From assembly GCF_044324875.1 (NCBI RefSeq), contig NZ_CP172188.1: DNA of 64,000 bases; one strand, written 5' to 3'. The position numbers and the translations under genes were made by a program. The notes below the pieces were generated by a model. It did no database searches, was not told where the DNA came from, and saw nothing but the letters and a program-made list of their open reading frames with translations. This document shows positions 4,963 through 63,754 of the stretch, one piece after another. This stretch comes from Escherichia coli (lineage in GTDB: Bacteria; Pseudomonadota; Gammaproteobacteria; Enterobacterales; Enterobacteriaceae). Within the stretch, counting starts at the first letter, position 1, and each line of letters begins with the position of its first letter.

Positions 4963-4982
4963 GTGTTAGAAAATCAATTTTG
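4963..4982. promoter_or_regulatory. operator-like motif (TGTGTTAGAAAA...TTT family), upstream of ref
   Basis: One of seven occurrences of a shared motif, all intergenic; loosely resembles the P1 C1 operator. Confidence 0.35.
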
Positions 4983-5041
4983 AATATCTAACTGTTTTGA
5001 TCAATCATAGAAAAATAGCTGAAAAGTAAGAGGCAGCCATC

Positions 5042-5620
5042 ATGCAGAAACAGAGCTATTGGGAGAAACAGAGACAAAAAGCCATGCAAAAATTGGCTGA
5101 CCCAGCCTGGCGAGAGGAACAAAGGGCAAAGCGCCTTCAACAAGCTCAACGCCAGCAGCAGCGAGCGAGAGAAAAAGCCGCATCGCCTGAATATCGGCAA
5201 AAGAAAATTGAAAAAGCAAAGCAATATGAACAGCGGAGAAAAGATAAAGCTGTATCCGCTCCGCCCAAAAAAACACGCACGTCACGCGGCCTGAAGGGCA
5301 GATCACTCACAGCCGATGAACGCCGGATACAGACCGCTATCGGTACTCTCCCCTGCATTGCCTGCCATATTCACGGGCAACATAGCCCAGTGGTATCCCT
5401 GCACCATATCTTCGGGAGAACGGCAGAGAACGCACATAAATATGTCCTCCCTTTGTGTAAATGGCACCACCAGTACGCAGCGCCAGCCGAGGTCCGAGAA
5501 CAATATCCCTGGCTGGTCCCTGTTCATGCTGATGGAAAAATAGGCGGAAAAGCAGATTTCATACGGCACAATGCCGATGAAATGGCGTTGTATCAGATGG
5601 CGATTGAATTAATAAATTAG
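5042..5620 (+). CDS. ref: Ref-like HNH endonuclease (recombination enhancement function)
   Basis: Highly charged K/R/Q-rich N-terminus followed by HNH core CIACHIHG...SLHHI...CKWHH; architecture as in P1 Ref. Confidence 0.6.
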   Translation: MQKQSYWEKQRQKAMQKLADPAWREEQRAKRLQQAQRQQQRAREKAASPEYRQKKIEKAKQYEQRRKDKAVSAPPKKTRTSRGLKGRSLTADERRIQTAIGTLPCIACHIHGQHSPVVSLHHIFGRTAENAHKYVLPLCKWHHQYAAPAEVREQYPWLVPVHADGKIGGKADFIRHNADEMALYQMAIELIN

Positions 5621-5631
5621 TTTTCTAACAT
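5621..5631. promoter_or_regulatory. operator-like motif copy (ttttctaacat)
   Basis: Core TTCTAACA motif immediately after the ref stop. Confidence 0.25.
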
Positions 5632-5951
5632 TTTAAGTTGAATTGTAAATTTCTCCGATGTACATTCACTACCGATTGGCACACCGGTCAACTTTTTGAG
5701 ACAAACTGTTTAGTTTTTCGTATTATTGCCCCCGCCATACCTATGGCGGTGCAATATAGGTGGCTGAAAAGCCCCCGTTGACTCACGGTGTTCCAGCCTT
5801 TATTGCGCCGCCACCAGACCGTGGAACAGTCGATGGCGGCTCCGAAAGCAAGGAGTCACTACACTATGAACAACTACAGTCTTTTCCCATCACTCGTCGT
5901 CCACCACTCACGCGATAATCTGCATTCTTTATTCGCGCTGGGGGAGTCAAA

Positions 5952-6119
5952 ATGACTGTTCGCTACCTCAACTTTCAAATCAAGAACATTACTGGCGGTT
6001 GCTATGACTGGTTTGTCACTCTCGGAAAAGAAGTGATTACCGGGAAGCTGGATGAAGTGAAAGCTAAAGCAATGGCCTACGCCTGCAAGCAAGCCCGGAA
6101 GAAATCCGCCAAAGCATAA
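5952..6119 (+). CDS. small hypothetical protein (55 aa)
   Basis: ATG preceded by GGGGAG; overlaps (ATGA) a 29-codon ORF at 5866..5955 that has an AAGGAG RBS; below the 60 aa ORF-track cutoff. Confidence 0.3.
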   Translation: MTVRYLNFQIKNITGGCYDWFVTLGKEVITGKLDEVKAKAMAYACKQARKKSAKA

Positions 6120-6431
6120 AATACTGACTGTTGCGCCCTGGCATTATCGTGGGGTATATTTCTACGGCACCTTAGAAAAACGGGTGCCGGGATTGGAACC
6201 CCGGATAATGCAAAAGGCGACACAGACGCCGAAAGCGTCTTTTCTTGTGTCATGCCATCGCACAGCCATACGTAGCGTTTAGCTCAGAGATCAATGGTAG
6301 TGCTGGCTGGGCTGCCGAAAGGCAGGCCGGTTCCCTTTTGCGCCGGTAGTTCCAACCCAGTCAGTGCTACCGCCATTGAGATTGGAACCTCACGCGGTAG
6401 CTCCTTAAATTAGCAAAAGGAGGCTGCCAAT

Positions 6432-8468: not shown

Positions 8469-9290
8469 TCACGAATCTCTCTGACAATTCAGAAACATAA
8501 ACGCCCGCTTGTCTGTTAAATCCGTAACATAATACTCTCTCATGCCTGTAGGTTTTATTCTACGAGCATATACAAACTTATGAACTGGTTGTTTTTCCCC
8601 ATAACTTACATCAGTCCTAAATTCATCAACCACGCTACCATCTTTTTCGACTTCCTTCCTCACCAGCTTATTTTCTAATGCTGGCTTTAATTCGTCCATG
8701 CCACTAAAAGCATCCTGGCCTGTACTATTGCCTCGATTTCCGCGCGGCAAATCCCAGGAGAAATAAGTGCCATAGTCAGTAATCACACGATCCCAGACTC
8801 CGGTATCCCCCATATAGTTAGAGCGCTTTCCATTGTAGGTTACAGCCACTTTACAGGAGTACGTTTCTTCATTCCCTCCAGCCTTACTCGCTGTGGTTGC
8901 AGGGATATTTTGGATAGATGCGCTTACGTCATCTTGCGTTAATTCCTCAACTGGAGCAAATTCATATATGGGTGTGCCGAGGCTATTTAAATATAACTTA
9001 TATCTAACCCTAAGCGCACTTCCATCTGAGAATTCATACGTTCCCAGGCATTGGAGCTTATTTTTTTCTCTTATCTCATTGATCTGATAATAAGCATCAA
9101 TTACAGAGATTGCTTCCTGATCGTCCTTCAGCAGTTCATTATAATCATCAATTAACATCTGTCTGGTTTTAGGGGCATTGCAGTCAATTTTGCTAAAATC
9201 ATAAGCAAAGGCAAATGTGGGAACAGAGAGAGCAACAACAGTAGCAAGTATTGTTGAGGAACATCTTTTTCCATTTTTTATAAAAAACAT
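8469..9290 (-). CDS. secreted/periplasmic protein of unknown function (273 aa)
   Basis: ORF 8469..9353; likely start is ATG at 9290 with GGAG RBS, giving signal peptide MFFIKNGKRCSSTILATVVALSVPTFAFA; low-GC. Confidence 0.5.
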   Translation of the reverse strand: MFFIKNGKRCSSTILATVVALSVPTFAFAYDFSKIDCNAPKTRQMLIDDYNELLKDDQEAISVIDAYYQINEIREKNKLQCLGTYEFSDGSALRVRYKLYLNSLGTPIYEFAPVEELTQDDVSASIQNIPATTASKAGGNEETYSCKVAVTYNGKRSNYMGDTGVWDRVITDYGTYFSWDLPRGNRGNSTGQDAFSGMDELKPALENKLVRKEVEKDGSVVDEFRTDVSYGEKQPVHKFVYARRIKPTGMREYYVTDLTDKRAFMFLNCQRDS

Positions 9291-9530
9291 TTCATTAACT
9301 CCATACTTTACCATCTTAGCCGCGAGCGCGGTCCCTAAAACCATTAACTTCACTGCACCGTTCCTTCATGCAATCAAAATGACTTTTATGTTATAAAAAT
9401 AATCAGCCAAATCAACATGATTTAGGCCAAATGCGTATTCCGCTCTATTCGATCACGGATTGGCATCGAAGTCCGATCAGCGATTCGCATCCATTCGATC
9501 AACCGGGAACTTAACTTTTTCTACCGCTTT

Positions 9531-10286
9531 TTAACGCGTTTTTTCGCTGCTTTCCACTACCGGGGGATTTTTCCTCAGTGACTCTCCCTGAAGGACCACT
9601 CGGTGTGAGTTATGTACCAGTCTGTCCAGGATGGCATCTGCTGTTGTTGGGTTCTCCATCAGACCATGCCATTTATCTACCGGGAACTGGCTTACCACTA
9701 TCGTGCTGCTTTGTCCGTAACGATCCTCTATGAGCTCCAGAAGGTCATTACACTGGGCGTTACTTAACTGTTCCAGCCCCAGATCGTCCAGGATTAGAAC
9801 CTGTATTTTTTGCAACTGTTTCAGATATTTCAGCCAGCTGCCATCAACACGTCCCTGAGCCAGTTGTTCCAGTAATCGCCCGGTTCTACAGTACCGGACG
9901 CTGTGTTTCTGTCGACATGCCTGTTCGCCCAGCGCATTGGCTATCCAGCTCTTGCCACATCCTGTCGGACCGGTTATCAGCAGGTTTTTCCTGTGGGTTA
10001 TGTAGTGGCCGTTCAGCAGTTCTCTCATCTGTTCAGCCCGCAGACCTCTTGAGGCCGGATAGCGCAGCCCTTCCGGTGTTGCCTGGTATTTCAGGCCGGC
10101 ATTTTTTCTCAACCGTGCCACACGGCTGTTTTCCCTGCTCAGAAGCTCGTCATCAACCAGCAGCGTCAGCCTTTCCTCGAACGACAGTTCGTCGTAGGTC
10201 TGAGGCGTTTCCCGCTGCCGTATCAGGCTCCCGGCCATCGCCGGGAGTTTCAGTTGGGTCAGTTTGTTTAACAGGTTATCACTCAT
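9531..10286 (-). CDS. istB: IS21 helper ATPase IstB
   Basis: Walker A GPTGCGKS, DnaC-like; ORF 9531..10529 but the start matching family length is ATG at 10286 (MSDNLLNKLTQLKLP). Confidence 0.85.
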   Translation of the reverse strand: MSDNLLNKLTQLKLPAMAGSLIRQRETPQTYDELSFEERLTLLVDDELLSRENSRVARLRKNAGLKYQATPEGLRYPASRGLRAEQMRELLNGHYITHRKNLLITGPTGCGKSWIANALGEQACRQKHSVRYCRTGRLLEQLAQGRVDGSWLKYLKQLQKIQVLILDDLGLEQLSNAQCNDLLELIEDRYGQSSTIVVSQFPVDKWHGLMENPTTADAILDRLVHNSHRVVLQGESLRKNPPVVESSEKTR

Positions 10287-10302
10287 ACTGTTGTTCCTTC
10301 TG

Positions 10303-11838
10303 TCAGTGGTAGTAGCCCGGACCACGCAGGTTTTCATGCTCTGAAGCATATGCCGGATGTTGTTCGCCCTGGCGGGATAATGGAAGCTCCAGGTTCTCCC
10401 GATGGTGACGCAGCAGATTGTCGATAAAGCGTCTGTCAGGGGCGTTATAGTGCAGGGCAACGTAACAGGCCTTTTCCAGCCGTTCCGGGCCGTATTTTTT
10501 CTGAAGTGCCAGCAGCCCCAGAACTGCACGATAAGCCAGTTCCGGATGGGGTTTTGCCTTCAGCATGGATTCAACCACCCGGCCTGTGGACGGGCCCGTA
10601 CGTTTTCCCTGCTCGATCAGGCGTTCCGGTGTCCATGTCCCGTGCTGCCGGTGGCGCTCTGGCATGTGAAGCGGATTGGTTGTGTGTTTATATTCATGTG
10701 TGCTGCGCGGATGTTGCGCCACACACTGCCCCTTGTGCCAGAGCTGTACCACCGACTGCCCCGCCTTCAGTGACAGACGCTGACCGACCAGTTCGTGTGG
10801 AACGGAGTACCAGTGACGGGCATATTCAACGTGGTAGTCAGGGCCAACCTTCACAGCTTTGTATTCCGTGTATTCATAAGGTGCCAGAGGCAGCGGAGAG
10901 AGTGCTGGCGCATCCAGTATGCGGAAGCGTTCTGCACGGGTTTGATTGCCGTACCCCTTCATTGGCCGGTTATTCATGTCTGTCAGTAACTCCCTAAGGC
11001 GCGCATTCAGCGCCCTGAGCGTGTGGAAGGTTTCATTACGGATGCGGGCAAGAAGCCATCGTTCAACGATGAGGACGCCGTTTTCTGCTTTTGGTTTATC
11101 TTTAGGTTTGCGTGGTCGGGCCGGGATGATAACCGTGCCATAGTGCTCAGCCAGTGCCTGATAACTGTCGTTGATGACAGGCTCATATCGATCGGCCTTT
11201 TTCACTGCGCTTCTGAGGTTATCGGGGATGAGCAGCTTCGGTACGCCGCCCAGGAAGGTCAGGCAACGGCTGTGGGCATTTAACCATGACATCATGTCCT
11301 GACCTTCGCACGCTTCAACGTAGGTATAGTTGGACGCCCCCATTACGGCCACGAAGATTGCCACGCGGCGTATCTCACCGGTGTCCGGATTAATAACAGG
11401 AACCGTAGGACCACAGAAGTCGATAAAAAGCTTTTCGCCGGCACGATGCTCCTGGCGCATGGAGAGACGTCGCGTTTTTTTCCACTCCCGGTAGCAACGG
11501 CAGAAGTGCGAGTATCCCATCGCTTTGTTACCCGCCTGTGCCTTGTATTCCATCCACAACAGTTGCCGCGTCACACCTGGTTTTCTCATTTCCGTATCGA
11601 AGTACAACATGTCAGGCATTACAAGCTCTGATGCAAAGGTGTCTTTGGGCGGAAAAATGAGTTTCTCCAGCGTGTCATGGGATATATCAGCAGGTAATGG
11701 CCATGACAGAGAAGAGGCTTTGAAGCGGGCAAGAACCTCAAAAACGGTTGAGGCGCTGATGTGTAACGTCAGTCCGATACAACGGTTAGTCAGCTTCTTG
11801 TCGAACTTGAGCTGAAGGATCTTAAAACAGGTTTCCAT
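10303..11838 (-). CDS. istA: IS21 transposase IstA
   Basis: DDE transposase with N-terminal HTH; ORF 10303..11949, likely start ATG at 11838 (METCFKIL). Confidence 0.8.
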   Translation of the reverse strand: METCFKILQLKFDKKLTNRCIGLTLHISASTVFEVLARFKASSLSWPLPADISHDTLEKLIFPPKDTFASELVMPDMLYFDTEMRKPGVTRQLLWMEYKAQAGNKAMGYSHFCRCYREWKKTRRLSMRQEHRAGEKLFIDFCGPTVPVINPDTGEIRRVAIFVAVMGASNYTYVEACEGQDMMSWLNAHSRCLTFLGGVPKLLIPDNLRSAVKKADRYEPVINDSYQALAEHYGTVIIPARPRKPKDKPKAENGVLIVERWLLARIRNETFHTLRALNARLRELLTDMNNRPMKGYGNQTRAERFRILDAPALSPLPLAPYEYTEYKAVKVGPDYHVEYARHWYSVPHELVGQRLSLKAGQSVVQLWHKGQCVAQHPRSTHEYKHTTNPLHMPERHRQHGTWTPERLIEQGKRTGPSTGRVVESMLKAKPHPELAYRAVLGLLALQKKYGPERLEKACYVALHYNAPDRRFIDNLLRHHRENLELPLSRQGEQHPAYASEHENLRGPGYYH

Positions 11839-12228
11839 AGTGCTCCTGGATTTTCTCTTTCTGGACATTGACGTCTCCACTGGTTTAAACACGGCAATGG
11901 AGACTGTGGTGAAAAGAGTTAATTCCCGGAGTGACTGGCAGGATGCCAATCAATGATCGGAAGCATGCCAAATCGTGATCGATTGTGATGCCAAACTGTG
12001 ATCGGAGATGGATGCCAAATCATGATCGATTCGAATGCCAAACTGCGATCGATTCAGATGCCATTTTGCAGCCAAATTTCTGTCAAAAAATAAAATCCAC
12101 AAAAAGTGGTTGACACTATTTTGGAAATCACAAACTGCACATAATCCATCGCGCTAACGGCTCCCGTTGAAGGTTCTTTTGACGATTAACTTTCAGCCGA
12201 AGCGCGGTAGGGAGTCATAACGCCAAAG

Positions 12229-12256
12229 CAGGCCGCCATGTGCGGCCTTTTTTTGT
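12229..12256 (+). terminator. rho-independent terminator
   Basis: ggccgc-catgt-gcggcc hairpin followed by a run of seven T. Confidence 0.55.
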
Positions 12257-12281
12257 ATCCGTCATCCGTGGAGGAAGGACA

Positions 12282-12935
12282 ATGGAAAAGATCGCAATAT
12301 TCAGCCTGACCACCAGCAAGCCTCAAATGCTCACTGCAATACTGAAAGACGGTGCTCTCATTATTAACGAAGTAAAACCCCTTCCCGCGTCAGCATTGGA
12401 GCAAAAGCAAAAAATTCCTCCAGCTATAGCAGCCCTGCGGAAAAGCAAATTTAAGGTACTGGTAGACGAAATTACGCCAACGATCTCCGCTGGCACCGGA
12501 GCAAGCCAGGTTACTCTCAAGACCCGTCATGCCGATGGCAGAGCAGCAATCATCGTCGGGATGGAAAGATACAGAGAGTTAAAACTCCAGAAGCTATTAT
12601 CCCTGCCGCAAAATAACAAAGGTGCTTTCGAAATCCCTGACTCCATCGTTGACACCGAATACAACGGTAACGGAGAAGAAGTCTACCGGGTGAACTGGCA
12701 GGATATCAGGCCGGAACATATTCTGATGGTCCTGTGTTGCTACGCGACCGTATACCACAACGTTGCCAGTGCAGATTACGTAGAGCAGATGACCGGCACA
12801 GTCGAGAAAGAGCAAAAAACAGGCATACTCGCTTCGTTCCTGTCCATTATTGGGCATGAAAAAGTTGAAGCAGGCACCTCCCAGCCAAAGTCACTGGCTG
12901 GGAAAGAAGTTGATGAAGATACCGTGATACTTTGA
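12282..12935 (+). CDS. hypothetical protein (217 aa)
   Basis: ATG at 12282 with GGAGGAAGG RBS (ORF track begins at GTG 12240); no recognisable family. Confidence 0.5.
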   Translation: MEKIAIFSLTTSKPQMLTAILKDGALIINEVKPLPASALEQKQKIPPAIAALRKSKFKVLVDEITPTISAGTGASQVTLKTRHADGRAAIIVGMERYRELKLQKLLSLPQNNKGAFEIPDSIVDTEYNGNGEEVYRVNWQDIRPEHILMVLCCYATVYHNVASADYVEQMTGTVEKEQKTGILASFLSIIGHEKVEAGTSQPKSLAGKEVDEDTVIL

Positions 12936-20740: not shown

Positions 20741-20773
20741 AAAACACATCCAATTGTGTTAGATAATTGAACA

Positions 20774-20793
20774 GAATTTTCTAACACAATTGG
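20774..20793. promoter_or_regulatory. operator-like motif copy upstream of rdgC
   Basis: gaattttctaacacaattgg; member of the 7-site motif family. Confidence 0.35.
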
Positions 20794-22369: not shown

Positions 22370-23267
22370 ATCTATAGCAAGCATAGCCATAGAAAAACAG
22401 GATACGATGGCTGAAATTAGCTATATGCGCACCATTCGGACTCAGGATGAATATGAGCGCCCGATCTTCAAATGGGTAGGCGGTAAATTCTCAGAGTTGC
22501 CTACAGTGCTTGAGCATCTACCACACGGCAAGCGGTTAATAGAACCATTCGTTGGTGGCGGTTCCGTATTTACAAATGCAGGATTTCGCCACAACCTGCT
22601 TAATGATATTAACGGTGACCTGATTAACTTCTATCAGACATTGCAGCGAGAAGGACATTCGCTCGTCACGCTGTCATATAGTTTTTTCCAAAATTACAAC
22701 AACGCTGACGCTTACCTCGAAGTGCGTGAGGCATTTAACAGAGGAAAGTATGACCAGCTACATCATGCTGCCGCCTTTTTGTACCTTAATCGGCACTGTT
22801 TTAATGGCGTAACGCGGTACAACCAAAATGGCGAGTTCAACGTGGGGTATGGCAAATACAAAGCGCCCTACTTCCCACATGCAGAGATGGAGGCATTTTT
22901 GGCTGATGACGTACTCAAAAACACGTCCTTTGTATCAGGTGACTTTGCTGGCGTCATCGAGGCGGCTGGTGAAGGCGATGTGATTTTTTGCGATCCGCCG
23001 TATGAACCGCTGCCGGATACAGAAGGGTTTACCAGTTATTCAGGAAATAGCTTCCGTTTCGACGAACAGAAACGGCTGGTATCTCTATTGGTGGAAGCCC
23101 ACCAGCGCGGCGCTAAGGTAGTGATAACAAATAGTGGTGCGCCAAACATCCGTGAACTATATGAAGGAAACGGGTTTAAAGTACATCATATGGCAGCCAG
23201 ACGGTCGGTTTCCTGCAAGGCGTCAACACGTGTAGTTGCTAACGATATAATTGCAATAATGAAGTAA
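22362..23267 (+). CDS. dam: DNA adenine methyltransferase (Dam family)
   Basis: FKWVGGK N-terminal motif and catalytic DPPY; ATG 22362 with AAGGGGG RBS overlaps the upstream stop. Confidence 0.8.
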   Translation: MSKSIASIAIEKQDTMAEISYMRTIRTQDEYERPIFKWVGGKFSELPTVLEHLPHGKRLIEPFVGGGSVFTNAGFRHNLLNDINGDLINFYQTLQREGHSLVTLSYSFFQNYNNADAYLEVREAFNRGKYDQLHHAAAFLYLNRHCFNGVTRYNQNGEFNVGYGKYKAPYFPHAEMEAFLADDVLKNTSFVSGDFAGVIEAAGEGDVIFCDPPYEPLPDTEGFTSYSGNSFRFDEQKRLVSLLVEAHQRGAKVVITNSGAPNIRELYEGNGFKVHHMAARRSVSCKASTRVVANDIIAIMK

Positions 23268-29793: not shown

Positions 29794-29820
29794 GCTTCAC
29801 AAAATCTATATAGCTATTTT

Positions 29821-29846
29821 ATGTTAGAAAAATAATTTGAATTTTC
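29821..29846. promoter_or_regulatory. operator-like motif upstream of immunity module 2
   Basis: atgttagaaaaataatttgaattttc; near-identical inverted copy at 40562..40592 upstream of module 3. Confidence 0.4.
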
Positions 29847-30019
29847 GAACATAAACAATAAAATAAATCATCAAAAATTTGATGTTGATCTTCCATGTTT
29901 TCAGGCTTATATTCACGCCGTTGCAGCAAATTCTGCGACCGGGTTTAGCAGCCTGAATGTACATGCGGACAACCGCAGATATCCGATATTGCGGTATTTT
30001 TGTGTCCGTAAAACCATGT

Positions 30020-31305: not shown

Positions 31306-31313
31306 TTACTGTT

Positions 31314-31754: not shown

Positions 31755-31778
31755 GATTTGTGTTAGAAAACTAAAATT
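31755..31778. promoter_or_regulatory. operator-like motif copy
   Basis: gatttgtgttagaaaactaaaatt, between divergent genes. Confidence 0.35.
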
Positions 31779-39004: not shown

Positions 39005-39007
39005 AAA

Positions 39008-39026
39008 GCCCCGGACAGGCCGGGGC
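39008..39026. terminator. bidirectional terminator hairpin shared by the tail operon and ant copy 3
   Basis: gccccggacaggccggggc hairpin between convergent genes. Confidence 0.55.
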
Positions 39027-39034
39027 AACAGTAA

Positions 39035-40033: not shown

Positions 40034-40248
40034 TAATGCACCTCCACGCAGTTCATTGGGCGGTTCCAGTAGGTCAAAACGTCCAGGGCATCGAGTTTGA
40101 AGCGAGCCGCAAAAATGCACGGATCTGTAGGAAGAAATGAACGCGCTTCAGCCTCAGTAGCTGCCATTACGGTGATATAGGTGTGTTTTGTGCAGGAATA
40201 AAAGCGCCAGATGAATTCTGGACGTGAGCAAGGATTGGCATTAACCAT
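40033..40248 (-). CDS. icd: Icd-like protein, module 3
   Basis: Paralog (MVNANPCSRPEFIWRFYSC...CVEVH). Confidence 0.7.
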   Translation of the reverse strand: MVNANPCSRPEFIWRFYSCTKHTYITVMAATEAEARSFLPTDPCIFAARFKLDALDVLTYWNRPMNCVEVH

Positions 40249-40299
40249 AGTTACGGCCTCATGTACAGGTTTAACAACCTGCTACCCGCTGTCAAACAG

Positions 40300-40390
40300 G
40301 TGGCAGGGCGTGACAGGGTTGACAGACTGGCGTACATGAAACCAGCAGGCCGAAGCCTCCCCATCACGCCCCACCATAATTCGGGCGTAA
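40300..40390 (-). ncRNA. c4-like antisense RNA region of immunity module 3 (boundaries approximate)
   Basis: Paralogous to 30020..30110, with the pairing element changed to ctgtcaa and both target sites changed to ttgacag. Confidence 0.45.
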
Positions 40391-40561
40391 CGTGGTTTAC
40401 GGACACAAAAATACCGCAATATCGGAAATCTGCGGATGTCCGCATGTACATTCAGGCTGTCAAACCTGGTCGCAGAATTTGCTACGACGGCGTGAATATA
40501 AGCCTGAACATCTGGAAGATCAACATCAAATTGTTGATGATTTATTTTATTATTCATGTTT

Positions 40562-40592
40562 GAAAATTCAAATTATTTTTCTAACACAATAC
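40562..40592. promoter_or_regulatory. operator-like motif upstream of immunity module 3
   Basis: gaaaattcaaattatttttctaacacaatac; inverted copy of the module 2 site. Confidence 0.4.
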
Positions 40593-50297: not shown

Positions 50298-53180
50298 ATG
50301 GGTGCTGATAAAACGAACAACATAATGACACTATCCTCTGGTGTCTCACAGCCGTTGCTTGCTGATGTTCAATATTTCGAACTCTATAGTAGTTCGGCTC
50401 TTAACAGAAAACTTAAAAATATTGTTTTGCCGGGCTTTTACTGTGGATTTGAACCGGTTCCCGGCACAGGGTTGAGTGTCCGTATAACTTCTGAAAACTC
50501 AGAAGGTAAAGGGGCTGCTTCAGTAGATGTAAATAATGTTCAGATATCCGTTCAGCAAATAGAAGATGTGACTGTCTCGGTAAAGGCAGGGGCTACCAAC
50601 ATTATTGTGCTGGAAGCCAATTTTGAACATGGTGTAAAAACGACACAGGTAGATAGCGCATCTTCTGTCAGTGCTGCAAGAATTTACGCGCGTACGGACA
50701 ATACTATTGGGCAGAATCAAATTGAATTATGTCGAGTTATCGTGCCTAGCGGCGCAACGGCTGTGACTAAAGAAATGATTGTGCTTAAATACCGGGTTAA
50801 CCGTGCTGTTGGTGTCGAATTCTCTAATGAAATAAGCAGTACAGAAGAAAGAAAAGCGGCTACACCTCTGGCTGTCAAAACTCTCCATGATTTGGTTGAT
50901 ACAAAAGCCCCGATCAACAGCCCGAATCTGACAGGAACGCCAACAACACCAACAGCGCCACAGGGGACTAATAATACCCAGATCGCAAGCACGGCTTTCG
51001 TTATGGCCGCGATTGCCGCACTTGTAGATTCGTCACCTGATGCACTTAACACTCTGAACGAACTGGCCGCCGCGCTTGGTAATGATCCGAACTTTTCCGC
51101 GACAGTGACTCGCCTGATTGGAGAAAAAGTTGCCAAAGATGGCGACACCATGACAGGTAAACTTAATCTGCCGCAGACCTCTGCATTCGGCATCAATACC
51201 AACAACAGACTGGGGGGGAACTCTCTGACGCTGGGCGATCACGATACCGGAATTAAACAGGAAGGAGACGGCGTATTGTCCGTGTTCGCCAACGGCCAGC
51301 GTGTGTTCCTTTTCACGGAAAGAAGTATTACCTCATTAAAAGAGCTTCTGATAGGGGATGCACGTTATAGCACCGGTGGTGATGTGTATGGCAGTCAGTG
51401 GGGAGACGGTTGGTTGAGTTCCTGGTTAAGTGCTCGCTTTGCAGAGTGTGCCAACGCCAGCCATAACCACCCTTGGAGCCAGATTACCGACGTACCAGCA
51501 GCCAGCCTCACTCAGAGCGGCATTGTACAACTTAGTAGTGCCATCAACAGCACTTCTGAAACATTAGCTGCAACTCCAAAAGCGGTTAAAGCTGCATACG
51601 ATCTAGCAGCCGGAAAGGCACCATCCAGTCATACACACCCCTGGAATCAGATCACTGGTGTGCCAACAGCTTCATTGACAGCGAAAGGCATCACTCAGCT
51701 CAGTAGTGCTACTAACAGCACGTCTGAAGTGCTGGCCGCCACACCAAAAGCTGTCAAGGCTGCATATGACCTGGCTAACGGGAAGTATACAGCCCAGGAT
51801 GCAACCACGACACAAAAAGGGATAGTTCAGCTCAGTAGCGACACCAACAGCACTTCTGAAACATTAGCTGCAACTCCAAAAGCGGTTAAAGCTGCATACG
51901 ATCTAGCAGCCGGAAAGGCACCATCCAGTCATACACACCCCTGGAATCAGATCACTGGTGTGCCAACAGCTTCATTGACAGCGAAAGGCATCACTCAGCT
52001 CAGTAGTGCTACTAACAGCACGTCTGAAGTGCTGGCCGCTACACCGAAAGCGGTTAAAGCTGCATACGATCTAGCAGCCGGAAAGGCACCATCCAATCAT
52101 ATACATCCCTGGAATCAGATCACTGGTGTGCCAACAGCTTCATTGACAGCGAAAGGCATCACTCAGCTCAGTAGTGCCACTAACAGCACGTCTGAAGTGC
52201 TGGCCGCTACACCGAAAGCGGTTAAAGCTGCATACGATCTAGCAGCCGGAAAGGCACCATCCAGTCATACACACCCCTGGAATCAGATCACTGGTGTGCC
52301 AACAGCTTCATTGACAGCGAAAGGCATCACTCAGCTCAGTAGTGCTACTAACAGCACGTCTGAAGTGCTGGCCGCTACACCGAAAGCGGTTAAAGCTGCA
52401 TACGATCTAGCAGCCGGAAAGGCACCATCCAATCATATACATCCCTGGAATCAGATCACTGGTGTGCCAACAGCTTCATTGACAGCGAAAGGCATCACTC
52501 AGCTCAGTAGTGCCACTAACAGCACGTCTGAAGTGCTGGCCGCTACACCGAAAGCGGTTAAAGCTGCATACGATCTAGCAGCCGGAAAGGCACCATCCAA
52601 TCATATACATCCCTGGAATCAGATCACTGGTGTGCCAACAGCTTCATTGACAGCGAAAGGCATCACTCAGCTCAGTAGTGCCACTAACAGCACGTCTGAA
52701 GTGCTGGCCGCTACACCGAAAGCTGTCAAGGCTGCATACGATCTGGCAAACGGAAAACAACCGGCAGATGCCACGCTCACTGCTCTGGCAGGACTTGCCA
52801 CTGCAGCAGATCGGTTGCCTTATTTTACCGGAGCAGACCGCGCAGCGCTGACAACCCTTACAGCTATTGGTCGCGCTATTATCGCTAAGGGCAGTATAAA
52901 AGATGTCCTCAATTACCTTGGTTTAGGAGAAGGCTCGGCGCTACCCGTTGGTGTGCCTGTTCCATGGCCCACCGCCACACCGCCAGCAGGCTGGTTAAAG
53001 TGCGACGGGCGCGCCTTTACAAAAGAACAATATCCTGTTCTGGCCAGAGTCTACCCGACCCTCCGTCTTCCCGATTTACGCGGTGAGTTTATCCGTGGAT
53101 GGGACGACGGGCGAAAAGTTGATACAGGGCGCGATTGCTTTCACGGCAAGGGGTACAAGTTTTTCTCATTACGGAGGTAA
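50298..53180 (+). CDS. tail fiber protein (S-like) ending inside the invertible-region repeat
   Basis: Tandem fiber repeats (ATPKAVKAAYDLA, HTHPWNQITGVPTASLT) and the conserved C-terminal junction PAGWLKCDGRAFTKEQYPVLAR...LRGEFIRGWDDGR. Confidence 0.85.
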   Translation: MGADKTNNIMTLSSGVSQPLLADVQYFELYSSSALNRKLKNIVLPGFYCGFEPVPGTGLSVRITSENSEGKGAASVDVNNVQISVQQIEDVTVSVKAGATNIIVLEANFEHGVKTTQVDSASSVSAARIYARTDNTIGQNQIELCRVIVPSGATAVTKEMIVLKYRVNRAVGVEFSNEISSTEERKAATPLAVKTLHDLVDTKAPINSPNLTGTPTTPTAPQGTNNTQIASTAFVMAAIAALVDSSPDALNTLNELAAALGNDPNFSATVTRLIGEKVAKDGDTMTGKLNLPQTSAFGINTNNRLGGNSLTLGDHDTGIKQEGDGVLSVFANGQRVFLFTERSITSLKELLIGDARYSTGGDVYGSQWGDGWLSSWLSARFAECANASHNHPWSQITDVPAASLTQSGIVQLSSAINSTSETLAATPKAVKAAYDLAAGKAPSSHTHPWNQITGVPTASLTAKGITQLSSATNSTSEVLAATPKAVKAAYDLANGKYTAQDATTTQKGIVQLSSDTNSTSETLAATPKAVKAAYDLAAGKAPSSHTHPWNQITGVPTASLTAKGITQLSSATNSTSEVLAATPKAVKAAYDLAAGKAPSNHIHPWNQITGVPTASLTAKGITQLSSATNSTSEVLAATPKAVKAAYDLAAGKAPSSHTHPWNQITGVPTASLTAKGITQLSSATNSTSEVLAATPKAVKAAYDLAAGKAPSNHIHPWNQITGVPTASLTAKGITQLSSATNSTSEVLAATPKAVKAAYDLAAGKAPSNHIHPWNQITGVPTASLTAKGITQLSSATNSTSEVLAATPKAVKAAYDLANGKQPADATLTALAGLATAADRLPYFTGADRAALTTLTAIGRAIIAKGSIKDVLNYLGLGEGSALPVGVPVPWPTATPPAGWLKCDGRAFTKEQYPVLARVYPTLRLPDLRGEFIRGWDDGRKVDTGRDCFHGKGYKFFSLRR
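51460..52750 (+). repeat. about seven tandem ~165-bp coding repeats inside the tail fiber gene
   Basis: Near-identical 55-aa units repeated; several DNA copies identical over more than 100 bp. Confidence 0.8.
52911..52933. promoter_or_regulatory. candidate invertase crossover site (cix/gix-like), left
   Basis: aattaccttGGTTTAGGAGAAgg at the outer edge of the left inverted repeat; mirrored at 54945..54970. Confidence 0.45.
52920..53133. repeat. left inverted repeat of the invertible region (~215 bp, ~98% identical to 54746..54960)
   Basis: Hand reverse-complement comparison shows only about four mismatches. Confidence 0.8.
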
Positions 53181-53334
53181 TTTCGACATTGGGTCTGGTT
53201 ATTCAATCAATAACTACGACCAATAGTTGTTTCTAACAACCAAGATTTTCCCGACCTTCATGAGGGCCTTTAACGAGGTGATGGGGTTAACATGTAACCA
53301 TTCGTCCTGGTAACATTGTTTAATTATATGGTAT

Positions 53335-53560
53335 GCAGGCTATAAACGTTGGTTTAGGAGAAGCGGCGCTATGCGTTGGTGTGCCTGTTCAGTGGCCCCC
53401 GCCACACCGCCATTGCAGGCTTAATTAAATTGTGAGGGCGCGTTTACAAAAGAACAATATCAGTTCTGGCCAGAAAACCCGACCCTCCGCTTCCCGATTT
53501 AGCGGTGCGATATCCGTGGATCACTATGACGAGACGAAAGGTTGATACACGGGCGTGCCT
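53335..53560. repeat. degenerate third copy of the inverted repeat with its own crossover-like site (plus orientation)
   Basis: About 80-85% identity to 52920..53133 with indels; begins ctataaacgttggtttaggagaag. Confidence 0.55.
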
Positions 53561-54239
53561 CTTTGGAGTTTCGCCCTTGGGACTATCGTATCCGGTTTTG
53601 ATGCGCCGATGCATACCGGAGATTTCAGGTTACGTGGTCGGCTGCCACACAAACGGATGGTGACGCATTTAACCTGATCACCTGGGGGTATAAATGGCAA
53701 AAAGTGGATATTTGATGCATCCCAACCGGTGCACAAAGATATGACTGGCGGACTTACCACCAGCAAAACAGCCTGCCACAATATGGGATTTAACTATATC
53801 GTGAAGGCGGCGTATACCGTTACTGAACGGCATAGAGCCGCAGTGGCGCTGGCCAGCTGCAACGCCAGAAACCTTGTGATATCCAGGCGTTCAGCTCGTC
53901 GATATAATCCAGCACGGCGGGCAGTTTTGCCGTTTCTTCCAGTTTCAGACTGCGACCTGCCCGCCGTTTGGGTTGATAGGTCGACGGCTTCACGCCTGGA
54001 TCCACCCGGCACTGGCGTTGCAGTTGGCAAGTCTCCAGCTCTGCGGCTCTATGCCGGCTCAGTATCACGCCGCCCACGATTACCGTTCCAGGTATCCCAT
54101 GGTGTGGCAGGCTGTTTTGTGGTGGTGTCCGCCGGTAATCACCCGGTTGAGGTGCATCAGAACGGGGTTCCCGTTTTCCGTTTATACCGTCTCCCGCGGT
54201 GATTAGGGTTACATGCGTCCCAAATCCGTTCAGTGTGGC

Positions 54240-54480
54240 AGTCCGAAACCACGTAACCCGATATCCTCCGGTATGCATTATCATCACGAACCGGAGTACG
54301 ATAGTCCCAAGGGCGAGATACTGAAAGTAGCGCACGCCCGGTATCAACCTTTCGTCCGTCATATCCACGGATAAACTCACCGCGTAAATCGGGAAGACGG
54401 ATCGGTTAGACTCTGGCCAGAACAGGATATTGTTCTTTTGTAAACGCGCCCTCACAATGTAACCAGCCTGCTACGGCGGT
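54240..54480. repeat. degenerate fourth copy of the repeat (minus orientation), inverted partner of 53335..53560
   Basis: Reverse complement aligns to the 53335..53660 copy, including gcccttgggactatcgta. Confidence 0.5.
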
Positions 54481-54564
54481 GTGACGGTGATACCCTTCGC
54501 ATACAGGCTTCTGATAGAGGTCAGAATAGTAGCCTGCATACCATTGTCTGACATTACCACGATG

Positions 54565-54960
54565 TTACGAGGATCGCTGAATGTTGTCCCGTCCGGCATT
54601 TTGAAGGCCCTCACGAAGGTCTGTAATGGAATCTTCATTGTTGAATCCCATGCCGACTATCCCCGAGGTTCCCGTAGTGTCCTGGTTATAATAATCCAGC
54701 ATTGCTGTTCTTAACAGCGTTGCCCCTTGTGCGGACAGCAACTTACGTCCTGTATCAACTTTGCGCCCGTCGTCCCATCCACGGATAAACTCACCGCGTA
54801 AATCGGGAAGACGGAGGGTCGGGTAGGCTCTGGCCAGAACAGGATATTGTTCTTTTGTAAAGGCGCGCCCGTCGCACTTTAACCAGCCTGCTGGCGGTGT
54901 GGCGGTGGGCCACGGAACAGGCACACCAACGGGTAGCGCCGAGCCTTCTCCTAAACCAAC
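54565..54960 (-). CDS. alternative tail-fiber C-terminal cassette (start-less; joined to the fiber gene only after inversion)
   Basis: Minus-strand frame encodes the same PVPWPTATPPAGWLKCDGR...RGWDDGRKVDTGR junction followed by a different 57-aa tail. Confidence 0.5.
   Translation of the reverse strand, partial: VGLGEGSALPVGVPVPWPTATPPAGWLKCDGRAFTKEQYPVLARAYPTLRLPDLRGEFIRGWDDGRKVDTGRKLLSAQGATLLRTAMLDYYNQDTTGTSGIVGMGFNNEDSITDLREGLQNAGRDNIQRSS
54746..54960. repeat. right inverted repeat of the invertible region
   Basis: Reverse complement matches 52920..53133. Confidence 0.8.
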
Positions 54961-54970
54961 GTTTATCTCT
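54945..54970. promoter_or_regulatory. candidate invertase crossover site, right
   Basis: ccTTCTCCTAAACCaacgtttatctc adjacent to the invertase gene. Confidence 0.45.
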
Positions 54971-55025
54971 CAAATCCTCCCCACATTATCTCAGTACTTT
55001 AACCACTCAAAAGGGAGTATTTTTA

Positions 55026-55598
55026 ATGCTGATTGGCTACATACGTGTGTCAACAAATGACCAAAACACAGATTTGCAACGCAATGCATTAATGTGCGCA
55101 GGATGTGAACAGATTTTTGAGGACAAAATGAGCGGAACCAAGTCGGAACGACCAGGCCTGAAACGCGCTTTAAAGTGCCTTAAAAGAGGGGATACATTGG
55201 TGGTCTGGAAGCTGGATCGGTTGGGTAGAAGAATGAAACACCTCATTGCTCTCACAGAAGAGCTACGCGCAAAAGGTGTCAATTTTCGCAGTCTGACGGA
55301 TTCAATCGATACCAGCACTCCGATGGGAAGGTTCTTTTTTCATATGATGGGTGCACTGGCAGAAATGGAGCGTGAACTGATAGTTGAGCGCACGCTGGCA
55401 GGACTGGCTGCTGCGCGATCACAAGGAAGAGTTGGAGGACGTCGCCCGAAACTGACGAAGGAGCAGCATGAGCAGATCGCAAGATTGCTCCAGAAAGGGT
55501 ATGACAGAAAGCGGCTGGCAATTATCTATGATATTGGACTGTCAACGATCTACCGCTATCACCCTGTTGGGACTGTCATAACGCAACCTGAAATGTAA
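55026..55598 (+). CDS. cin: Cin/Gin/Hin-family serine DNA invertase
   Basis: MLIGYIRVSTNDQNTDLQRNAL...LVVWKLDRLGR...FRSLTDSIDTS collinear with Mu Gin as recalled; ATG 55026 (ORF track 54897 extends into the repeat). Confidence 0.9.
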   Translation: MLIGYIRVSTNDQNTDLQRNALMCAGCEQIFEDKMSGTKSERPGLKRALKCLKRGDTLVVWKLDRLGRRMKHLIALTEELRAKGVNFRSLTDSIDTSTPMGRFFFHMMGALAEMERELIVERTLAGLAAARSQGRVGGRRPKLTKEQHEQIARLLQKGYDRKRLAIIYDIGLSTIYRYHPVGTVITQPEM

Positions 55599-60963: not shown

Positions 60964-61027
60964 ACCAACCGCTGAAATCACATACTGATTATGCTGCCGC
61001 AAAACTGGAAACAATTTGCGGTGATTC

Positions 61028-62710
61028 ATGGCAACGAAAGACAAAAACAAAGGCTTTCTGTCAGCATTGAAGAAAGCCTTCAACGGTGGTGATGTTACGC
61101 CCGCCGATCCGGTCGTTTTTACGAGCGGGCATAGTGTCGTTGCTCGTTCCGGCCTGTCTGCTTTACGTCCAGGTATACTGGGGAGCAACAGCGATGGCAT
61201 GACGAGTGCAGCAGATTCAATTTCTTTATCCGCTGAACTGCCCGGCGAGCGCCTGCAAAAGTACAACATCCTGGAAACGATGGCTAAAAGCCCGACTATC
61301 TCGACGGCTTTAAATATTCACATTGCACATGCGCTTGCGCCTTCAAAAAAAACCGGACAAGCATTCATCCTTTCGCCAAAGGATGGTTCCGATGCTGAGG
61401 CAGTAAGTAGATGTGAAGAGTTAACTGCTGATTTGGGGGCGATGATTAATGACGGACTTCCTTCATGGGCCATGATTATGGCGATCTTTGGGGTGTCTTA
61501 TGTCCGCCCTTATGCTGAACAGGGCAGGGGGATAACAGGCATTGAGTCCAGTTATTACACTCTGCCACACTTCGTCCAGGAGTTTTATCGTGGTAGCCAG
61601 CTGGTAGGTTTCAGTGGTGATTACATCCTGGATACGCATAGTTTGCGCAGAGTAATAACCGAACCGTGGAATCTGGTTTCCATGAAAAATCCCTATTGGA
61701 CGCCACAGCATAAAGTTATTCCGGTTAGCTACGGCACAAAAGGGTACTCACTGTTAAGTGATCAGGCTGATAAGCCGTTAATGGAGACGCAGAATTACGG
61801 GACTTCATTCCTGGAATACAGCTATGAACCTTACCTTAATTTATGTGCTTCGCTCGCCGCGCTGAAATCAACGCGAAATAATGCAGCCAAAATTGACCGC
61901 CTGATTGCTCTTACGACGAACACACTGGACCCGGTTAATGCGGCGAACTATACGCGTGGCGTCAGCCAGGCATTGAAGCGTCATAGTGACTTGGTGGCGC
62001 AAAGGTCGATTAATGCCAACGCTATTCCGACTGTGCTTAACCATCTGATACCTGTTATGGGAGACGGGAAGAACGGCATCACCATTGATACGCAATCCAT
62101 ACCCGCAGATATCAGTGGTATCGAAGACGTTATGTTTCACCTCCGGCAGCTTGCTGCAAGCCTCGGCATTGACGCAACAATGCTTGGCTGGGCTGATCAG
62201 ATGAGCGGAGGGCTTGGAGAAGGCGGCTGGCAGCAAACTGCTATCCAGGCTGCATTGCGTGCGAACTGGATCAGACAGGCCGCCCAGCGAACTATTTATC
62301 GGCTTCTGGACATTCACCTCGCTTATAAATACGGCAAGGTTTACACCGAAACAAACCGCCCTTATGACGTGCAATTCAACTCAATGAACACTGCTATCCA
62401 GGAAGAGGAAAACCGAGAACTGGATGCACGCGCCAACTTTGTTGCTGTCATCTCCCAAATTATGGACCAGATCCAGAATAACCCGAAACTGGCTGGTAGC
62501 GACGCGTTTATGCGTTATCTGTTCACTGAGCAGTTGCACATCGACGATGACACTCTCAACACCATGATCAAAGAGTTTAAGGCGAATGAATCAGAGCAAA
62601 ACAACGAGCATGGTATGTACGAATCCGCGCCGTTGTCGTCCGGTGACGATCCGGAAAACTGGACGCCAGAACAGTTAATAAACTTTGCAAAATTTGTGAT
62701 GAGCAATTAA
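61028..62710 (+). CDS. portal protein candidate (560 aa)
   Basis: Size and position directly upstream of a prohead protease/scaffold-like gene. Confidence 0.5.
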   Translation: MATKDKNKGFLSALKKAFNGGDVTPADPVVFTSGHSVVARSGLSALRPGILGSNSDGMTSAADSISLSAELPGERLQKYNILETMAKSPTISTALNIHIAHALAPSKKTGQAFILSPKDGSDAEAVSRCEELTADLGAMINDGLPSWAMIMAIFGVSYVRPYAEQGRGITGIESSYYTLPHFVQEFYRGSQLVGFSGDYILDTHSLRRVITEPWNLVSMKNPYWTPQHKVIPVSYGTKGYSLLSDQADKPLMETQNYGTSFLEYSYEPYLNLCASLAALKSTRNNAAKIDRLIALTTNTLDPVNAANYTRGVSQALKRHSDLVAQRSINANAIPTVLNHLIPVMGDGKNGITIDTQSIPADISGIEDVMFHLRQLAASLGIDATMLGWADQMSGGLGEGGWQQTAIQAALRANWIRQAAQRTIYRLLDIHLAYKYGKVYTETNRPYDVQFNSMNTAIQEEENRELDARANFVAVISQIMDQIQNNPKLAGSDAFMRYLFTEQLHIDDDTLNTMIKEFKANESEQNNEHGMYESAPLSSGDDPENWTPEQLINFAKFVMSN

Positions 62711-62723
62711 CCGGAGGGAAATA

Positions 62724-63722
62724 ATGCAATCACTGAATACTGTTACGGATCGCTTCTCCCTGGTAGAGAAAATCCGCAAACACACACCGCAGAACAACCG
62801 AAATTACGTCATTCAGTCGGTACGAGACACATTCAACTCGCCAGAAACAAAAGAGCGTATCGCGCTGGGTGAGATGTATGGTTATTACGGTCATGGTCGC
62901 CGGGCGATGCACTATAACAAAACGAAAAGCCTGAACTTGCCGGAAGTCTCTGTTGTGATGGTAGATGGGAAGCCTGTTGTATTGGAGAACGTGCCATCCA
63001 ACAGGACTATCGACATTTCGATTGACGACAACGGCATTGTTACCCATACGCAGGAAATACTGGATACAGACACCGGGCGTATTGTTCAGGGGATGATAAA
63101 TTCTGGCGCCGGTGGTTGGTCATGGGCTACATCTGGTCCAGACTCATCGGTATCCCTGGTAAAGTCTTTCCACGGCTTTGATTACGTAACTGTGCCTAAC
63201 TATATCAGCCTCGACAAGAAAAGCCTGATGCTTGAATCAGCAGAAGAGCGCGATGCGGCTATTCATGCAGCACTTATCGAACAAGGTTTTACCGATAACG
63301 CTGCCACGGATCTGGTTCACCACTTTTCAGCGATGAAAAATCAGCAAGCCATGCTCGAGTCTGCACATCGTGAAGCCCTGGAATCAGAATTAATGCTCCT
63401 TGAAGCGGAAAATATGCAACTTCGCGACAAATTACGAAACCAGGCTGCAATGATGGAAAGCCAGGGCGAAGATGCGAAGAAATGCCGCCGTATTTTGCGT
63501 GATGCTATCCAGGAAATGCCTGTTTTTATCAGTGCAGAACAACGCCGGGCGCTCTGCCGTATGCAGTCTGAAGATGATGCTCGCATAGTGGCTGCGATGC
63601 TTGAATCTCTGGGGGCAAATGCGACTTATGGCTTACCGATATCAGGCAAGAAAGAGGCGGAGTTATCACCGAAGGAGAACAAAAATACCACACCGTTACT
63701 CTTCGTTTCGCGACGGGCGTAA
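62724..63722 (+). CDS. prohead protease/scaffold-like protein candidate (332 aa)
   Basis: Gly-rich segments (GYYGHGRR, SGAGGWSW) followed by a coiled-coil scaffold-like C-terminus; follows the portal candidate. Confidence 0.4.
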   Translation: MQSLNTVTDRFSLVEKIRKHTPQNNRNYVIQSVRDTFNSPETKERIALGEMYGYYGHGRRAMHYNKTKSLNLPEVSVVMVDGKPVVLENVPSNRTIDISIDDNGIVTHTQEILDTDTGRIVQGMINSGAGGWSWATSGPDSSVSLVKSFHGFDYVTVPNYISLDKKSLMLESAEERDAAIHAALIEQGFTDNAATDLVHHFSAMKNQQAMLESAHREALESELMLLEAENMQLRDKLRNQAAMMESQGEDAKKCRRILRDAIQEMPVFISAEQRRALCRMQSEDDARIVAAMLESLGANATYGLPISGKKEAELSPKENKNTTPLLFVSRRA

Positions 63723-63734
63723 CCGTTACATGAA

Positions 63735-63754
63735 GTTAAATTTCTAACATAGTG
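63735..63754. promoter_or_regulatory. operator-like motif copy
   Basis: gttaaatttctaacatagtg downstream of the prohead gene. Confidence 0.3.

Follow-up and report, generated by a model that had tools for sequence, protein, structure and literature searches.

Operators of a probable D6-type C1 repressor regulon in a P1-related plasmid prophage of Escherichia coli

Lambdoid phages have symmetric 17-bp cI/Cro operators (OR and OL), which are grouped in two control regions beside the repressor gene. The operators of the C1 repressor of phage P1 (immC) are asymmetric sites of ~17-19 bp, which are dispersed across a ~90-kb plasmid prophage and positioned in gaps at operon starts. Those annotated in the P1 record (AF234172) include Oref, Omat, Ossb, Oc4, OrepL, Odmt, Obanab, Olpa and Oc1a-e. 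Single sites occur alongside inverted overlapping (bivalent) ones, such as the 28-bp pairs Obanab and Oc1ab. Omat overlaps the 3' end of ref, and OrepL controls kilA-repL. D6-like plasmid prophages, which are related to P1, are common in E. coli and Salmonella, and D6 (MF356679) is the reference genome for this group. No operators are annotated in the GenBank records of D6. Full-text literature searches for the motif described below, and for D6 together with the C1 repressor, returned nothing relevant within a coverage that excluded the D6 genome and immC papers, and an earlier description of the D6 operators is possible.

The stretch of DNA analyzed here (the window, 64,000 nucleotides of the Escherichia coli contig NZ_CP172188.1) is part of a D6-like plasmid prophage. 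It corresponds to the reverse complement of D6 positions ~80181-22216, with 93-98% identity over most of the window length. Our comparisons of sequence and position suggest that a motif repeated across this window is very probably the operator set of the D6-type C1 prophage repressor. Such an operator set is expected biology rather than a surprise, because it would be the D6 counterpart of the known scattered C1 operators of P1.

Recurrence, form and context of the motif

The core TGTTAGAAAA has six exact matches in the window, against 0.21 ± 0.52 expected from dinucleotide shuffles, and no shuffle reached six. A 30-bp palindrome, TGTTWGAWAA-N10-TTWTCWAACA, occurs four times (0.05 expected), and a 19-bp weight matrix (TRTGTTAGAAAAYTAAWTT) gives 11 matches of at least 15 bits, compared with 0.27 in Markov-shuffled sequence. 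As the matrix was trained on the same sites that it scores, the exact-word counts are the cleaner test. All 11 matrix matches are intergenic in a window that is ~90% coding according to a greedy ORF map, and they fall at eight loci spread across 59 kb (Table 1). A sequence-only reading had placed the motif at seven intergenic sites, and it is indeed present at each of them: it reads forward at 4962, 29820 and 31759, and as the reverse complement TTTTCTAACA at 5621, 20777, 40577 and 63740, the last copy carrying one mismatch. The weaker candidate at 9387 was absent from that list and constitutes the eighth locus.

Table 1. Putative operators and associated immunity modules in the window (scores are those of the 19-bp weight matrix)
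Feature	Position	Strand	Remarks
Putative ref operator, paired	4962..4995	.	Between divergent orf88-like gene (-) and ref (5042-5620, +); strong half 4962-4980 (+), 26.4 bits; weak half 4977-4995 (-), 7.1 bits
Putative single operator	5614..5632	-	Overlaps ref stop codon; 25.5 bits; no partner half-site
Weaker candidate single operator	9387..9405	+	15.9 bits; core TGTTATAAAA
Putative hrdC/rdgC operator, paired	20755..20788	.	Halves 17.0 and 22.4 bits, 15-bp offset
Putative immunity module 2 operator, paired	29820..29853	.	Halves 27.4 and 23.4 bits
Immunity module 2	c4-a1b1 29907-29959; C4 RNA 30028-30113; icd 30161-30385; ant 30385-31305		Rfam (C4), PHROGs (Ant)
Putative single operator	31759..31777	+	28.2 bits, top score in window; no partner
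Putative immunity module 3 operator, paired	40555..40588	.	Halves 20.0 and 27.8 bits
Immunity module 3	c4-a1b1 40449-40501; C4 RNA 40296-40381; ant 39035-40120	-	Operator upstream; Rfam matches
Putative repL operator, single	63733..63751	-	25.1 bits; core TGTTAGAAAT; between pro (ends 63722) and repL past window end

At three of the eight loci the sites form clear inverted pairs of 34 bp, at one the second half of the pair is weak, and at the remaining four a single asymmetric site is present. In the pairs, two ~19-bp sites are inverted and overlap by 4 bp, so that their conserved cores lie 20 bp apart, centre to centre; inside each motif, TGTTAG and TAAWTT are spaced by 5 bp. The weak half of the ref site still scores above the 99.9th percentile of background. 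The whole ref site is a near-perfect 30-bp palindrome in other D6-like contigs, and it differs from that of D6 by one substitution, which is located in the weak half.

The gene identities proposed in the sequence-only reading were confirmed, with Ref assigned to phrog_2321 and the RdgC-type protein to phrog_724 in PHROGs, and the immunity modules recognized by Rfam C4 RNA matches. The modules are present as proposed, but their number had been given as two, whereas the window holds three c4-icd-ant units. The single site at 5614 precedes the third of these, being followed by orf86-orf85-isrK-like RNA-C4 RNA-icd-ant (immunity module 1, C4 RNA at 6290-6377 by Rfam). Relative to D6, the two modules preceded by the paired sites at 29820 and 40555 are extra and inserted, and the site at 40555 belongs to an inverted duplicate of the 29819-30012 arm. 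Of the remaining loci, the candidate at 9387 lies 34 bp upstream of a simB-like gene (8469-9353, - strand) and originally faced mat, from which it is now separated by an IS21-family element. Tail gene 5 (ending at 20740) and hrdC/rdgC (starting at 20800) are separated by 59 bp, which the pair at 20755 largely fills, and the central spacer of this pair differs from that of D6. The site at 31759 is found in the divergent gap between an orf52-like gene (31341-31745, - strand) and the major capsid gene 23 (31904-33601, + strand).

Promoter-like hexamers overlap the motif at three loci, hrdC and the two duplicated immunity modules. A -10 (GATAAT, 20762-20767) is positioned within the left half of the hrdC site; a -35 (TTGAAT, 29837-29842) lies within the module 2 site, with its -10 at 29859-29864 and a second promoter-like sequence at 29885-29913; and a -35 starting at 40571 on the - strand lies within the module 3 site. 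These predictions are weak (8-9 of 12 positions matching) and no more frequent than in shuffles, and strict sigma-70 scans around each site likewise returned no more promoter-like matches than shuffles did. The candidates overlapping the sites, which came from a relaxed scan, are thus offered as suggestions.

Correspondence with the C1 operators of P1

Six loci of the window coincide in position with C1 operators annotated in the P1 record. The site at 4962 takes the place of Oref and that at 5614 the place of Omat; 20755 corresponds to Odmt (upstream of uhr-hrdC-dmt), 29820 and 40555 both correspond to Oc4 (upstream of c4-icd-ant), and 63733 corresponds to OrepL. Oc1 and Olpa are matched in D6 by motif copies upstream of c1 and lpa. 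The motif marks the operons that C1 controls in P1, namely ref, mat, the dmt operon, c4-icd-ant, repL and lpa. The likeness extends to the form of the sites, since here as in P1 a single asymmetric motif of similar length recurs in many intergenic or promoter-proximal copies (eight loci in the window and 13 in D6), single and inverted overlapping sites are mixed, and the Omat counterpart overlaps the 3' end of ref. In addition, the layout of immunity module 2 matches that of Oc4 with P2c4 and P1c4. A dispersed repressor regulon of the P1 type, as put forward in the sequence-only reading, is thus supported by a D6-like relative of P1 with matching operator positions. The set also resembles the lambdoid operators in that prophage repressor sites, as we take these to be, overlap early promoters; unlike those operators, it is distributed over 59 kb at no fewer than eight loci, half of which carry an asymmetric single site, and the repressor family is unrelated.

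Several differences from P1 were also observed. The paired sites are longer than those of P1 (34 against 28 bp). No C1 operator is annotated in P1 at the place corresponding to 31759, and the window in turn lacks equivalents of the P1 operators at ssb, ban, 26 and pmgT. The motif itself is also different, being TRTGTTAGAAAAYTAAWTT here and ATTGCTCTAATAAATTT in P1. The P1 consensus, with which the sequence-only reading had suggested a comparison, is absent from the window. The P1 cores TGCTCTAATA and TTGCTCTAAT have no exact copies in the window or in D6, compared with 10-12 in P1, and conversely the D6 core has no copy in P1. A matrix of P1 operators yielded a single match of at least 15 bits in the window (5603-5619), which lacks the GCTC core. 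As the D6 and P1 matrices are no more similar than expected by chance (p about 0.3), sequence homology between the two sets of operators cannot be claimed, and assignment to the P1-type class (P1/P7 immC specificity) was rejected.

Conservation of the motif in D6 and other relatives

The best independent test of the motif is provided by the ~33 kb of D6 that do not overlap the window, in which six more exact copies of the core were found (199, 8917, 10322, 11365, 21267 and 80729). All 15 strong matches in D6, at 13 loci, lie within gaps between annotated genes, and the motif is present at every D6 orthologue of a window operator, for example at 72195-72213 (the candidate near simB), 54201-54219 (the site before the capsid gene) and 22465-22483, which again lies between pro and repL. 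The site at 197-215 is located 12 bp upstream of the start codon of c1 (ATG at 227), and another copy is found upstream of lpa (position 4630). The window itself excludes c1, and the expectation in the sequence-only reading that the repressor gene lies outside it proved correct, since a tblastn search of the window for a c1 homologue gave a best E value of 0.11. D6-type c1 is carried by 149 plasmid records. In plasmid pK91, which encodes a C1 68% identical to the D6-type protein, the motif is retained at the same place upstream of c1, so a putative operator at the repressor's own gene is seen in both D6 and pK91. Because this C1 keeps the same motif, there is no covariation to exploit at this distance, and a change of specificity within D6-type C1 was set aside.

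Conservation was also observed among D6-like contigs from IMG/VR, which were found by searching for the paired-site pattern of the hrdC and ref operators. The sites that were not used for picking them (window positions 5621, 9396 and 31767) are conserved: the core at 5614 is invariant in seven distinct D6-like sequences, none of which was selected for this site, the candidate at 9387 is retained in several contigs, and the site at 31759 is retained in two contigs not selected for it. The half-sites at hrdC are likewise retained in contigs with flanks 72-77% identical, where the central 10 bp are variable, but the conservation of half-sites at hrdC and ref is biased because the contigs were found by that very pattern.

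In a Leclercia element (pE1_003), whose C1 is 30% identical, neither the D6 nor the P1 core was found in 30.5 kb around c1. Repeats of GTGATCAC lie upstream of c1 in this element.

The proposed regulon and alternative readings

From the motif and its positions we infer binding by C1, genuine promoters at the predicted places and repression as the outcome. The operators would lie on or adjoin predicted sigma-70-type promoters of genes kept silent in the plasmid prophage, including ref, the hrdC-methylase operon, the three c4-icd-ant antirepressor modules, repL, the simB/mat region and the orf52-like gene, and, elsewhere in the replicon, lpa and c1 itself. RNA polymerase would be blocked by C1 bound at these operators, and once an antirepressor inactivated C1, all these units would be released together. 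The operator map would then indicate which genes are silent in the carrier state and released jointly on induction, among them three antirepressor modules, the lytic replication gene and a recombination/methylase operon, and the consensus may be used for annotating and immunity-typing P1/D6-like plasmids.

The repressors of D6 and P1 are distantly homologous, with 21% identity (pairwise E = 2e-8), and both match phrog_1678 over their full length, with 345 aa in D6 and 283 aa in P1. Since these C1 proteins are homologous and yet would read unrelated sequences at the same positions, the P1/D6 pair may represent a natural specificity swap, which could help to map where on the protein DNA is read, in a repressor family without a recognized DNA-binding domain.

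It is unlikely, in our estimation, that the sites are bound instead by another phage-encoded regulator, either a second repressor or an early-gene activator, with a regulon overlapping that of P1 C1. C1-family proteins have no Pfam match and no relative with a solved structure, so that nothing direct ties the protein to the motif, and P1 has no operator matching the site at 31759. However, seven positions match P1 C1 operators, one of them being the site immediately before c1, motif and repressor lineage travel together across P1, D6, pK91 and the Leclercia element, and no other candidate regulator was found. A related and similarly improbable reading is that the sites are not read by C1 alone, and that C1 acts in a looped or cooperative higher-order complex or beside a second, unrecognized regulator. 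The cores of the 34-bp pairs are exactly two helical turns apart, compared with ~1.5 turns in P1, and three operators guard antirepressor modules, two of them forming an inverted duplicate around the capsid-sheath-tube genes. Under either arrangement, D6-like prophages would have an immunity circuit whose organization departs from the P1 one.

The motif is A+T-rich and always near promoter-like sequence, as would be expected of a target of a host nucleoid-associated protein or transcription factor, or of a shared element of early promoters. This origin appears very doubtful, as the G-containing TGTTAG is invariant, the motif far exceeds dinucleotide expectation, P1 lacks the core despite having the same hosts and homologous operons, and the 5-bp spacing between TGTTAG and TAAWTT is unlike that of a -35/-10 pair. 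To our knowledge, no host-factor consensus matches the motif. Still less plausible is an action in RNA, where the palindromes would form hairpins for termination or processing. Stems of 10 bp could arise at the four loci with inverted repeats, but the other four are single asymmetric sites without a partner, and a terminator scan called none, the G+C-rich stem and the T-run both being missing. Moreover, the sites lie upstream of genes, at promoter-like sequence, and their central 10 bp vary freely. Chance recurrence in the A+T-rich intergenic DNA of the window, which might be suspected from the only about two-fold excess of the 12-mer of the sequence-only reading (15 copies with up to two mismatches, 7.3 expected), has a negligible probability given the far larger excess of the exact 10-mer and the palindrome and the recurrence of the motif in the D6 segment outside the overlap and, in many contigs, at orthologous sites.

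Other candidates were set aside during the analysis. The P1-type late promoter, which is Lpa-dependent and consists of a -22 box (AAGTGACTT) and a -10, is unlike the motif in sequence, and none of its five loose pattern matches in the window coincides with an operator. Among the IMG/VR contigs matching the palindrome, 14 of 48 are unrelated, sharing no homology with the window and carrying hardly any additional sites, and two copies in contig L051 represent a duplicated coding segment.

Recurrence and conservation of the motif

The window corresponds to the reverse complement of D6 (MF356679), a P1-related plasmid prophage, from ~80181 down to 22216 (megablast and local blastn), with 93-98% identity across most of its length and a few insertions. 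Its close relatives are many 90-95-kb plasmids of E. coli and Salmonella, none of which is identical to it. In D6, c1, lpa, pacAB, repL and dre are all located in the part of the replicon beyond the window, and tblastn with D6 C1 and P1 C1 as queries found no c1 homologue in the window, which bears out the earlier placement of the repressor gene outside it.

The sequence-only reading had listed seven intergenic sites, and the motif was present at all of them: three copies read forward (4962, 29820 and 31759) and four read as the reverse complement (5621, 20777, 40577 and 63740). There are six exact copies of the core, TGTTAGAAAA, in the window against 0.21 expected from dinucleotide shuffles, and four of the 30-bp palindrome TGTTWGAWAA-N10-TTWTCWAACA against 0.05, counts far enough above expectation to exclude chance recurrence. 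Alignment of the sites widened the motif to ~19 informative positions, TRTGTTAGAAAAYTAAWTT, and the resulting weight matrix gave 11 matches of at least 15 bits, compared with 0.27 after Markov shuffling; every one of the 11 is intergenic, in a window that is ~90% coding. As this matrix was built from the same sites that it scores, more weight is carried by the independent check in D6, in which the ~33 kb outside the window contain six more exact cores, and all 15 strong matrix matches, at 13 loci, fall in gaps between annotated genes.

A palindrome scan of IMG/VR retrieved 48 stretches, including 34 D6-like ones that match the hrdC or ref operator and 14 unrelated ones that look like chance matches. 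Both cores of the hrdC operator are intact even with flanks of just 72-77% identity, and its central 10 bp (window 20767-20776) take at least 10 forms among D6-like contigs, both observations being biased by the search pattern. Unbiased evidence of conservation comes from the sites at 5621, 9396 and 31767, which were not part of the search and are found at orthologous positions in every covering contig. In addition, the window and D6 differ as to which half of the hrdC operator has GATAA and which has GAAAA.

Anatomy and surroundings of the putative operators

Eight putative operator loci were recognized in the window, with neighbouring gene identities checked against PHROGs and Rfam. Three are clear inverted pairs, in which two 19-bp sites share a 4-bp overlap within a 34-bp span and their cores lie 20 bp apart. 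The fourth pair, between ref and the orf88-like gene, consists of a strong and a weak half, the latter with a score of 7.1 bits that exceeds the 99.9th background percentile, and the orthologous site in other D6-like contigs is a near-perfect palindrome. The remaining four are single asymmetric sites without a partner; the one near the simB-like gene (15.9 bits) is additional to those listed from the sequence alone. A 14.7-bit match at 60915 lies within coding sequence and was left out of the count.

Putative operators and other features located in the window
Feature	Coordinates	Strand	Surroundings or remarks
Gene for TnpB-type RNA-guided endonuclease	3002-4180		within 2443-4222, absent from D6
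Paired operator	4962-4995		between divergent orf88-like gene and ref
P1-matrix match	5603-5619	+	in last ref codons
Single operator	5614-5632		over ref stop codon; ahead of orf86, orf85, isrK-like RNA, C4 antisense RNA, icd and ant
isrK-type sRNA match	6167-6245	+	directly upstream of module 1 C4 RNA
C4 RNA, module 1	6290-6377	+	RF01695
Single operator, weaker	9387-9405		34 bp upstream of simB-like gene; D6 counterpart faces mat
IS21-family element	9433-12070		inserted relative to D6
IstB	9531-10529	-	
IstA	10303-11949	-	
mat	12240-12935		
Paired operator	20755-20788		most of 59-bp gap ahead of RdgC-type hrdC and two methylase genes
Inverted-repeat arm	29819-31335		module 2
Paired operator	29820-29853		upstream of c4-a1b1 element, C4 RNA, icd and Ant antirepressor
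C4 RNA, module 2	30028-30113	+	RF01695
Single operator	31759-31777		between orf52-like gene and major capsid gene
Inverted-repeat arm	39005-40589		module 3
C4 RNA, module 3	40296-40381	-	RF01695
Paired operator	40555-40588		upstream of c4-a1b1 element, C4 RNA, icd and Ant antirepressor
Tail-fibre variable region	51005-55026		no blastn match >250 bp to D6
Serine invertase (cin-like) gene	54897-55598		adjoins tail-fibre variable region
Single operator	63733-63751		between pro and repL
Terminator-like hairpin	63835-63860	-	~85 bp past repL-side operator

The hrdC operator contains a promoter-like -10 inside its left half, and both operators of the duplicated immunity modules contain a promoter-like -35, with a second promoter-like match ~48 bp downstream; since these hexamers match the consensus weakly and do not exceed their frequency in shuffles, the promoters placed here are putative. 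The IS21-family element lies between mat and the candidate simB/mat operator, at a distance of ~30 bp from the latter. The hairpin near the repL-side operator is strong (11-bp stem, 6 G-C pairs and a T-run) and is oriented towards pro.

Relation to the C1 operators of P1

The dispersed C1 operators of P1 are textbook knowledge. According to the annotation of record AF234172, Oref is flanked by the -35 and -10 of a ref promoter, Omat overlaps the ref 3' end, and Odmt is ahead of uhr-hrdC-dmt. There are two c4 promoters, the first of which has its -35 overlapped by Oc4, and OrepL overlaps the promoter of kilA-repL. Olpa is ahead of lpa, Oc1a-e are positioned around c1 and coi, and two operators, Obanab and Oc1ab, each form an inverted overlapping pair of 28 bp. 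Such annotated places are matched by six of the eight window loci. D6 has the motif at 197-215, 12 bp ahead of the c1 start codon (ATG at 227), and at 4630-4648, ahead of lpa. The proposed P1-like dispersed regulon is supported by these positions, but its sequence is not that of P1: exact copies of the P1 operator core are lacking from both the window and D6. Likewise, P1 contains neither an exact D6 core nor a D6-matrix match of at least 15 bits. The similarity of the two operator matrices is no greater than in column-shuffled controls (p ~0.3), so we make no claim of sequence homology for the operators; their likeness is one of layout and positions only. A stretch at the ref 3' end, ATTGAATTAATAAATTA, reaches 15.9 bits when scored with a matrix from P1 operators and adjoins the D6-type site in exactly the place of P1 Omat; as it lacks the GCTC core and lies within coding sequence, it is probably an A+T-rich coincidence or a relic.

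The repressors themselves are homologous: D6 C1 (345 aa) and P1 C1 (283 aa) are 21% identical across 240 residues (E = 2e-8 in a pairwise comparison), and both match phrog_1678 end to end; neither a Pfam domain nor a solved relative was found for this family. Although the C1 of plasmid pK91 has just 68% identity to D6 C1, the same site occupies the same place before c1. The motif goes with the repressor lineage, and the P1 C1-operator system has a second specificity in the D6-type sequence. D6 GenBank records hold no operator features, and a full-text search of literature other than the D6 genome and immC papers found no prior description, although there is a real chance that these operators have already been described. 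In addition, Leclercia adecarboxylata plasmid pE1_003 (NZ_CP042508.1), a P1/D6-like element, encodes a C1 homologue 30% identical to D6 C1; neither the P1 nor the D6 core was found in 30.5 kb around its c1, and its GTGATCAC-containing repeats, upstream of c1 (9133-9525) and in five other places, may represent a third operator type.

P1 C1 is reported to bind one site per protein unit. By analogy, the best-supported reading of the mechanism is that one unit of D6-type C1 would bind each 19-bp site, and we infer both this binding and the direction of its effect. Single sites may provide basal repression and paired sites stronger or two-sided repression, the pairs being placed at the divergent ref/orf88 promoter region and at units that would be harmful if leaky (the antirepressor modules and the hrdC-methylase operon). 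If C1 were inactivated, ref, hrdC, repL, lpa, the three immunity modules and the remaining units would then be derepressed together. Another phage regulator is unlikely to read the sites, since the motif occurs at c1 and its placement matches the P1 regulon, and host-factor targets or a generic promoter element are similarly unlikely, given that P1 shares the same hosts and lacks any copy of the core. A role as RNA hairpins does not fit the four single sites.

Immunity modules and divergence from D6

Three C4 antisense RNA/icd-ant modules were identified in the window (RF01695, 70-77 bits), only one of which is present in the same interval of D6, whose second module adjoins repL outside the window. 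Relative to D6, modules 2 and 3 have been inserted; they make up an imperfect inverted repeat (88-95% identity) on either side of a ~7.7-kb capsid-sheath-tube gene block, which could be inverted by homologous recombination. The three Ant proteins differ from one another (306, 361 and 313 aa), and the c4-a1b1 element is absent from module 1, next to which the isrK-type Hfq-binding sRNA was matched (RF01394, 59 bits). Elsewhere, the TnpB-type gene was assigned by NCBIfam guided_TnpB (356 bits), and the serine invertase gene is only ~69% identical to its D6 counterpart.
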